Shown here piece by piece: positions 31,107 to 44,106 of a stretch of 64,000 nucleotides of DNA. The notes beneath the pieces were generated by a model that was not told where the DNA came from, ran no database searches, and worked only from the letters and a program-made list of their open reading frames with translations. Every line of letters begins with the position of its first letter. Within the stretch, counting starts at the first letter, position 1. The stretch spans positions 44,557,847 through 44,621,846 of the forward strand of contig CP154954.1 in assembly GCA_039621445.1 (NCBI GenBank). Direction: 5' to 3'. The DNA comes from Euglena gracilis (lineage: Eukaryota). The position numbers and the translations under genes were made by a program.

Positions 31107-44106
<13,000 letters not shown>

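Follow-up and report, generated by a model that had tools for sequence, protein, structure and literature searches.

A papain-fold gene of Euglena gracilis with serine at the nucleophile position, next to a Cys-type paralog and interrupted by nonconventional introns

Papain-fold proteins in which serine replaces the catalytic cysteine have arisen several times, among them the SERAs, silicateins, TINAG-like proteins, and insect and mite forms, and their function is mostly unclear. Silicateins derive from cathepsin L and are linked to the deposition of silica; TINAG-like proteins are cathepsin-B-like proteins of the extracellular matrix. SERA5, which carries Ser596, showed no detectable peptidase activity in the work excerpted from PMC4671257, where a Ser-to-Cys change made it active and a Ser-to-Ala change was tolerated in the parasite. 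In the same excerpt, the authors knew of no papain scaffold with a Cys-to-Ser change that had kept significant activity. SERA5 is non-enzymatic yet functional according to the available portions of PMC4671257, PMC5500368 and PMC7132891, and an excerpt of PMC5956821 describes multicopy families of inactive paralogs among the inactive cysteine proteases of scabies mites.

We scanned the window, the whole 64-kb stretch of Euglena gracilis DNA analysed here, in six frames and found exactly two papain-type active-site motifs. One is QGQCAASW at 33437-33460 on the plus strand, encoded by CAG GGA CAA TGC GCC GCC AGC TGG; the other, QGECGSCW, belongs to a Cys-type paralog 21 kb upstream (Table 1). The nucleophile-position codon of the first gene, hereafter the Ser copy, is AGC (33455-33457), which encodes serine. 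Against papain numbering, the equivalents of Gln19, Cys22 and Trp26 are kept, and Gly23 has become Ala, Ser24 Ala and Cys25 Ser. The catalytic His (CAT, 36656-36658, within NHAV at 36653-36664), the Asn (AAC, 36704-36706, within RNSWG at 36701-36715) and the Trp (36710-36712) lie in frame in a block that extends over 36653-36727, through RNSWGPGWG. An initial annotation had reported both motifs and the intact His and Asn, and translation together with the motif scan placed each of them where it had been described. The Gln19, His159, Asn175 and Trp177 equivalents align with those of the Cys-type neighbour and of five full-length bacterial-type relatives.

Two exons of the Ser copy matched PF00112 (Peptidase_C1) when scored singly rather than as a whole spliced protein, with 29.4 bits (E 1e-6) for the Ser exon and 43.6 bits (E 4.9e-11) for the His/Asn exon, against a curated cut-off of 20.7 bits. 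Because of these Pfam matches and the His/Asn blocks, we take QGQCAASW to be part of a true papain-fold gene and not a chance string. The nucleophile of an active family C1 peptidase, Cys25 in Q-x-x-C-G-S-C-W, is missing from the Ser copy in the window, in RNA and in DNA. The cysteines of the model (in QGQC, LLSC, DGCRGG, RDVDC, EASC and HGCHG, two of them in inferred exons) would correspond, as judged by alignment, to papain's disulfide cysteines.

We also weighed a sequencing, assembly or editing artefact hiding a true TGC codon; in its favour, a single base separates AGC from TGC. Among sequencing runs, 14 of DNA type contained 0.59-0.66 of the words of the locus, and six small runs of possible RNA type about 0.11-0.12; four raw RNA-seq runs with the same species label were added to these. 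Reads or contigs from four runs were compared over 27131-37130: X1 (DNA), X19 (RNA), and X21 and X24 (raw RNA-seq, 5-6% of each read). The Ser exon (33416-33520) was present in an X19 contig with 0 differences from the window. An X1 contig covering about 33380-33646 differed at 33478, 33493, 33554 and 33561, the first two changes being synonymous by frame and the last two intronic, and 33455 was absent from the differences listed. An A-to-T change at 34012 (Gln to Leu) was common to both runs, which accordingly stem from a different haplotype than the window. Since RNA matches DNA, editing at the Ser codon is ruled out. The window, the RNA contig and the DNA contig of the SNP-bearing haplotype thus agree at 33455, as far as the listed differences go, and the adjoining residues have changed too (GS to AA), along with ten further invariant positions. 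The read support at 33455, from one RNA and one DNA data set, bears out the earlier claim that serine here is not a sequencing error, and we regard the artefact as close to refuted.

The X19 contig (record 11; 1086 nt, depth 12.1) aligned to the window in six separate pieces, as expected of a spliced transcript (E1, E2, E3, E5, E6 and E8 in Table 1). Its record numbers run on across three of the joins, and introns I1, I2 and I5 are thereby directly seen to be removed. Gaps in the contig numbering imply two more exons, E4 (50 nt) and E7 (74 nt), which we placed by the intron code, frame and alignment to the neighbour. The resulting transcript-guided model has nine exons (E0-E8) and 282 codons, with no stop and no frame-breaking indel. 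The first 33 letters of the contig lie upstream of E1 and the last 281 beyond the model.

Table 1. Positions of the two papain-type genes, the exons of the Ser copy and the inserted element within the window
Feature	Positions	Strand	Remarks
Cys-type paralog	12270-17312	+	QGECGSCW at 12303-12326; NHAVLLVGW at 14919; further block from 17224 onward
Cys-type paralog, modelled blocks	12270-12436, 13014-13093, 13366-13567, 14891-14988, 17224-17312	+	junctions from code and homology rather than RNA evidence
Candidate first exon of Ser copy	31107-31235	+	candidate only; signal-peptide-like start, ATG at 31107
E0	31596-31670	+	pro-region, ends ...EGWTFTV; by homology to P0023/P0033/P0034; junction predicted by code; 5' limit not fixed
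E1	31818-31895	+	X19 contig, record 34-111
E2	32733-32822	+	X19 contig, record 112-201; LPEEFDW, start of mature domain
E3, Ser motif exon	33416-33520	+	X19 contig, record 202-306
E4, inferred	33830-33879	+	record 307-356; start by code AGC-CAG...CTG-TGGTT|G and neighbour alignment; end by length only
E5	33971-34084	+	X19 contig, record 357-470; DGCRGGWF...RDVDCVATD; one difference, 34012 A>T
E6	34790-34898	+	X19 contig, record 471-579; CPVAKAF...WNEGPVA; paralog match
MITE-like element, 373 bp	34908-35280	+	inside I6, ends CAGGG...CCCTG; between two perfect CCGCAGTC copies (34900-35288)
E7, inferred	35280-35353	+	record 580-653; in frame, aligned to neighbour
E8, His/Asn/Trp exon	36652-36803	+	X19 contig, record 654-805; followed by GTATGC

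The initial annotation had described a frame open across 11 exons. The open frame holds over the 282 codons; the exon number gives way to nine, and a count built on GT-AG borders cannot stand because the introns of this gene are not GT-AG. The candidate first exon has about 35 possible junctions to E0, none of them read-supported. A scan for the next exon 3' of 36803, under conventional and nonconventional rules, returned far too many candidates to single one out, and the X19 loose-end sequences near 31040, 31699 and 34311 had no match elsewhere in the window. We rejected a mini-intron of 25-27 nt at 36804, as the 281-nt continuation would have aligned there if it lay in the covered stretch, and an alternative end of E4 (intron from 33872), as the next contig piece starts at 33971 and not at 33963. 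With neither protein end placed and no membrane anchor shown, the suggestion that the protein sits at the cell surface is without support.

Expression was seen in X19 alone among the RNA runs aligned (X19, X21 and X24). Mean depth on exon bins was 0 to about 0.5 in the portions of X21 and X24 that were read, and we take expression of the Ser gene to be low in those samples because almost no reads fell on its exons. Hundreds of raw RNA-seq reads made up mostly of poly-C attached to short C-rich sites at 32686-32705 and 34721-34741; they account for the high X21/X24 depth at 32.7 kb and 34.7 kb, and the 2-kb joints that they produce were discarded as a poly-C artefact rather than splicing. Elsewhere, 28830-29065 matched an abundant minus-strand X19 contig (depth 247), was covered by both raw RNA runs and had very high DNA word depth; it is probably a transcribed repeat.

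Nonconventional introns of Euglena follow the code 5'-N3-CDG ... CH'G-N5-6|R in the excerpted text of PMC12501133, which also describes abundant short direct repeats at their borders and a suspected MITE origin. In the Ser gene, a GT/GC-AG reading is possible for none of the eight modelled introns. Five (I0, I1, I3, I5 and I6) fit the full nonconventional code, which I2, I4 and I7 do not. Intron I5, of 705 nt, is flanked by the 8-nt direct repeat CTGCCCGG (34085-34797), conforms to the code as GCC-CGG...CCG-GCCCT|G and is made of highly repeated DNA, with an X1 word depth of tens of thousands. Within I6, the MITE-like element, also of very high DNA word depth, splits a stretch that the neighbour encodes within one exon (GPVAAAV|AVN). 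The code GTC-CAG...CTG-CCGCA|G would excise this element together with exactly one 8-bp copy and restore the frame, and the contig arithmetic points to its removal from RNA. The Ser gene shows that gene models in this genome are not readable by GT-AG rules. The exons that bear its catalytic residues are linked across nonconventional introns, and one of these introns is a transposon.

The ends of E4 (33867-33879) and E7 (35341-35353) carry the same 13-mer, ACCGAAAACARAC, which gives ...RKQT twice in the protein. The window contains no further match (expectation 0.41; two matches were reached in 8 of 100 shuffles), and the repetition could be chance or another signal shared by I4 and I7, two of the introns that miss the code. 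RNA folding of the 91-nt I4 region was no better than that of shuffles (z -0.89).

A dispersed repeat family at 7680-7904, 15436-15825, 30466-30629 and 34909-35341 has pseudo-translations that include proline runs. Its copies lie within or close to introns of the two paralogs and also on the upstream side of the Ser gene. Long compound microsatellites (GT/GC/TGTGGG, GAGT/GT and CA) at 37134-37436, 33274-33372 and 33656-33755 sit just downstream of the Ser gene and within its introns, and Logan contigs of the DNA run break there. An interstitial telomere-like array (GGGTTA, about 14 copies) lies at 39916-39998.

We then compared the Ser copy with its relatives. It shares 51.8% identity with the Cys-type neighbour over 199 aligned residues, and the intron positions of the two differ. 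In the neighbour, a 2.2-kb nonconventional intron (14989-17223) separates RNS from WG, where the Ser copy is uninterrupted (36701-36715). The neighbour is itself uninterrupted where the Ser copy carries the MITE intron, the neighbour's junctions being taken from code and homology only. A HMMER search with the 35-residue Ser exon returned 29 proteins at E <= 0.001 and a word-index search with the last exon returned 17; a word-index search of longer proteins with the Ser exon gave no candidate, and NCBIfam held no family for the exons of the Ser gene or for the relatives. A papain-type motif was present in 26 of the 29 Ser-exon matches. Serine occupied the nucleophile position only in P0010 and P0020, both beetle cathepsin-L-like proteins, and in P0025, a sturgeon protein. 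Cysteine was found there in every one of the 22 bacterial-type relatives that have the motif.

The best real relatives of the Euglena pair are bacterial or metagenomic C1A peptidases (P0019, P0022-24, P0026 and P0028-P0046), many of them with a chagasin-family I42 domain, which was not seen in the Ser gene exons found. Like the Ser copy, they belong to the PF00112 fold family. The last exon is 60-71% identical to these proteins. They share with both Euglena copies the C-terminal signature GYMRI..G...VG..ANYVV and, in some cases (P0023, P0033, P0034 and P0038), the N-terminal region GWTFTVGENxAT; unlike the pair, they have a loop of the WKKVSGET type. Gene transfer between bacteria and euglenids, in one direction or the other, is possible.

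In a maximum-likelihood tree of 18 rows, with midpoint root only, the Ser copy and the Cys neighbour were sisters with support of 100/99. This placement, the uniform cysteine of the 22 bacterial-type relatives and the occurrence of the other Ser forms in unrelated lineages agree with the earlier proposal of an independent origin. On the sequence evidence, an origin of this Ser form separate from that of the known Ser-type C1A proteins is supported, although the kind itself is known. None of the literature matches listed dealt with a Ser-type C1A protein from Euglena, which is weak evidence that none has been published. We propose that a tandem duplication within the euglenid lineage was followed by a change of the nucleophile from Cys to Ser in one papain-fold C1A copy. 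The product would keep the fold together with Gln, His, Asn, Trp and the cysteines.

A transcribed copy in decay would offer a different account, in which the Cys-to-Ser change killed the enzyme, constraint was relaxed and the open frame has merely not yet been hit. Several observations point this way. The branch of the Ser copy is about threefold longer than that of the neighbour (2.25 against 0.77). Five relatives have 69 invariant columns in common, of which 49 are preserved in the Ser copy and 58 in the neighbour; losses confined to the Ser copy number ten, and those confined to the neighbour one (two-sided sign test, about 0.012). The ten include G23A, C25S, LSEQ to LSVQ and the GGW.AHDYH wall. 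Tajima-type relative-rate tests with single outgroups were not significant (chi2 1.6-3.1). Polymorphism in four X1 contigs, over E2-E5 and E8, showed no clear exon depletion among the listed substitutions, with 3 in 511 exon bases (two synonymous, one Gln to Leu) compared with 7 in about 1091 bases outside the exons. The pN/pS of the paralog pair is high, at 0.332/0.543, with dN/dS of about 0.45 and dS near saturation. The next-to-absent reads in the two raw RNA-seq runs, the MITE within a former exon and the failure to find an ortholog of the Ser copy among the 29 Ser-exon and 17 last-exon matches also favour decay.

Against decay, the 282 codons have stayed open, free of frame-breaking indels, at 48% amino-acid divergence from the sister, and in a crude simulation of unconstrained substitution, limited to the 199 aligned codons, only 40-211 of 5000 runs (0.8-4%) were stop-free. 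GC3 of the Ser copy is 0.858, near the 0.887 of the neighbour and far above the 0.556 of its own introns. At least three junctions are spliced in an RNA contig of depth 12.1, the modelled MITE is excised exactly as a nonconventional intron would be, and the cysteines and the partners of the triad are all kept. Decay through a recent loss of constraint may still be under way, and we give this account a minor but real chance. Judged on sequence, the pattern fits a protein in which catalysis was lost and cleft positions were freed while the protein itself was kept.

What such a protein might do was then considered. Loss of peptidase activity is expected because of the effects of Cys-to-Ser changes elsewhere in the papain fold, and the Ser protein most likely no longer cuts peptide bonds. 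With the fold kept, the nucleophile replaced and the gene maintained and expressed, the Ser copy would class as a non-peptidase C1A homologue, and the initial suggestion of a pseudoprotease or new chemistry is plausible. We lean modestly towards an independently evolved, expressed, non-cutting pseudoprotease with a binding or regulatory role. It would probably act in the secretory or lysosomal pathway, possibly tied to the Cys neighbour or to the substrates or inhibitors of that enzyme. The retained His and Asn count against a non-cutting protein, as a purely structural role would not require them.

These same residues are the starting point for a Ser-nucleophile hydrolase, in which a Ser-His-Asn triad and a Gln oxyanion hole would carry out a reaction other than ordinary thiol proteolysis, for example the hydrolysis of esters or amides, a condensation or a transfer; silicateins use the same triad in this way. 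Gln, His, Asn and Trp are all kept despite the changed nucleophile. The cleft wall appears remodelled rather than destroyed, reading GGWFTPQML in the Ser copy versus GGSFAHDVH or GGWWAHDYH in the alignment of the neighbour and relatives, and frame and codon bias are intact. However, ten family-invariant residues are gone from the Ser copy, and its nearest relatives are bacterial-type C1A proteins, with no sign of silicatein's cathepsin-L clade. Cathepsin K chains 5j94 and 5z5o, which match the Ser exon best among solved structures, also have serine here, with the surrounding motif kept in a different clade; we take these chains to be engineered inactive mutants. Silicateins are natural Ser-type papain-fold enzymes that need their serine (Cha et al. 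1999, as cited in the excerpt of PMC4671257), and yet Cys-to-Ser changes in papain scaffolds are reported in that excerpt to reduce or abolish activity. We consider a hydrolase of this type improbable, and retain the non-cutting pseudoprotease as our preferred reading.

The known Ser-type proteins resemble the Ser copy in different respects. In the beetle proteins P0010 and P0020, which belong to different clades, serine likewise replaces the nucleophile and the motif around it is kept. The sturgeon protein P0025, named 'Tubulointerstitial nephritis antigen-like', is papain-fold and has the identical local sequence C-A-A-S-W-A-F (in QGNCAASWAF), in a match that spans only residues 7-23 of the 35-residue query exon (E 7.3e-4). 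The CAASW motif is all that this animal protein has in common with the Ser copy, the likeness is convergent, and the Ser copy does not belong with TINAG or the TINAG-like proteins. Sponge silicateins have only the triad in common with the Ser copy, a naturally occurring Ser-His-Asn set on the papain fold (PMC4671257, excerpt); the closest proteins to the Ser copy are bacterial-type C1A peptidases and the tandem Cys paralog, and nothing at the locus hints at silica, which sets it apart from the silicateins.

SERA5 is similar in that its papain-like domain carries Ser instead of the nucleophilic Cys and keeps the His and Asn, and in that its tandem family includes Cys-type copies. In contrast, the SERAs are unrelated in lineage and architecture, being large multi-domain proteins found in the parasitophorous vacuole. 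The local Cys paralog is sister to the Ser copy and no SERA was among the 29 and 17 matches, which places the Ser copy outside that family. The Ser copy might work as a partner to the Cys enzyme next to it, in a division of labour like that of SERA5 and SERA6 that a free-living alga would have evolved on its own, starting from a bacterial-type C1A gene, or else be a Ser-His-Asn non-peptidase hydrolase; that one or the other holds is a slim prospect. If so, the locus would provide a genetically tractable, non-parasite model for the re-use of the papain fold after loss of the thiol. Knock-ins in Euglena (PMC12501133) and a CRISPR protocol (PMC13142649) have been described; the organism is genome-editable, and therefore Ser-to-Cys, Ser-to-Ala and knockout alleles could be compared directly. 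Overall, the Ser copy adds a lineage to a known phenomenon and is otherwise an ordinary finding, and with its neighbour it forms a pair that looks young and is clearly polarised, in which a parent-type Cys copy stands beside its Ser daughter.
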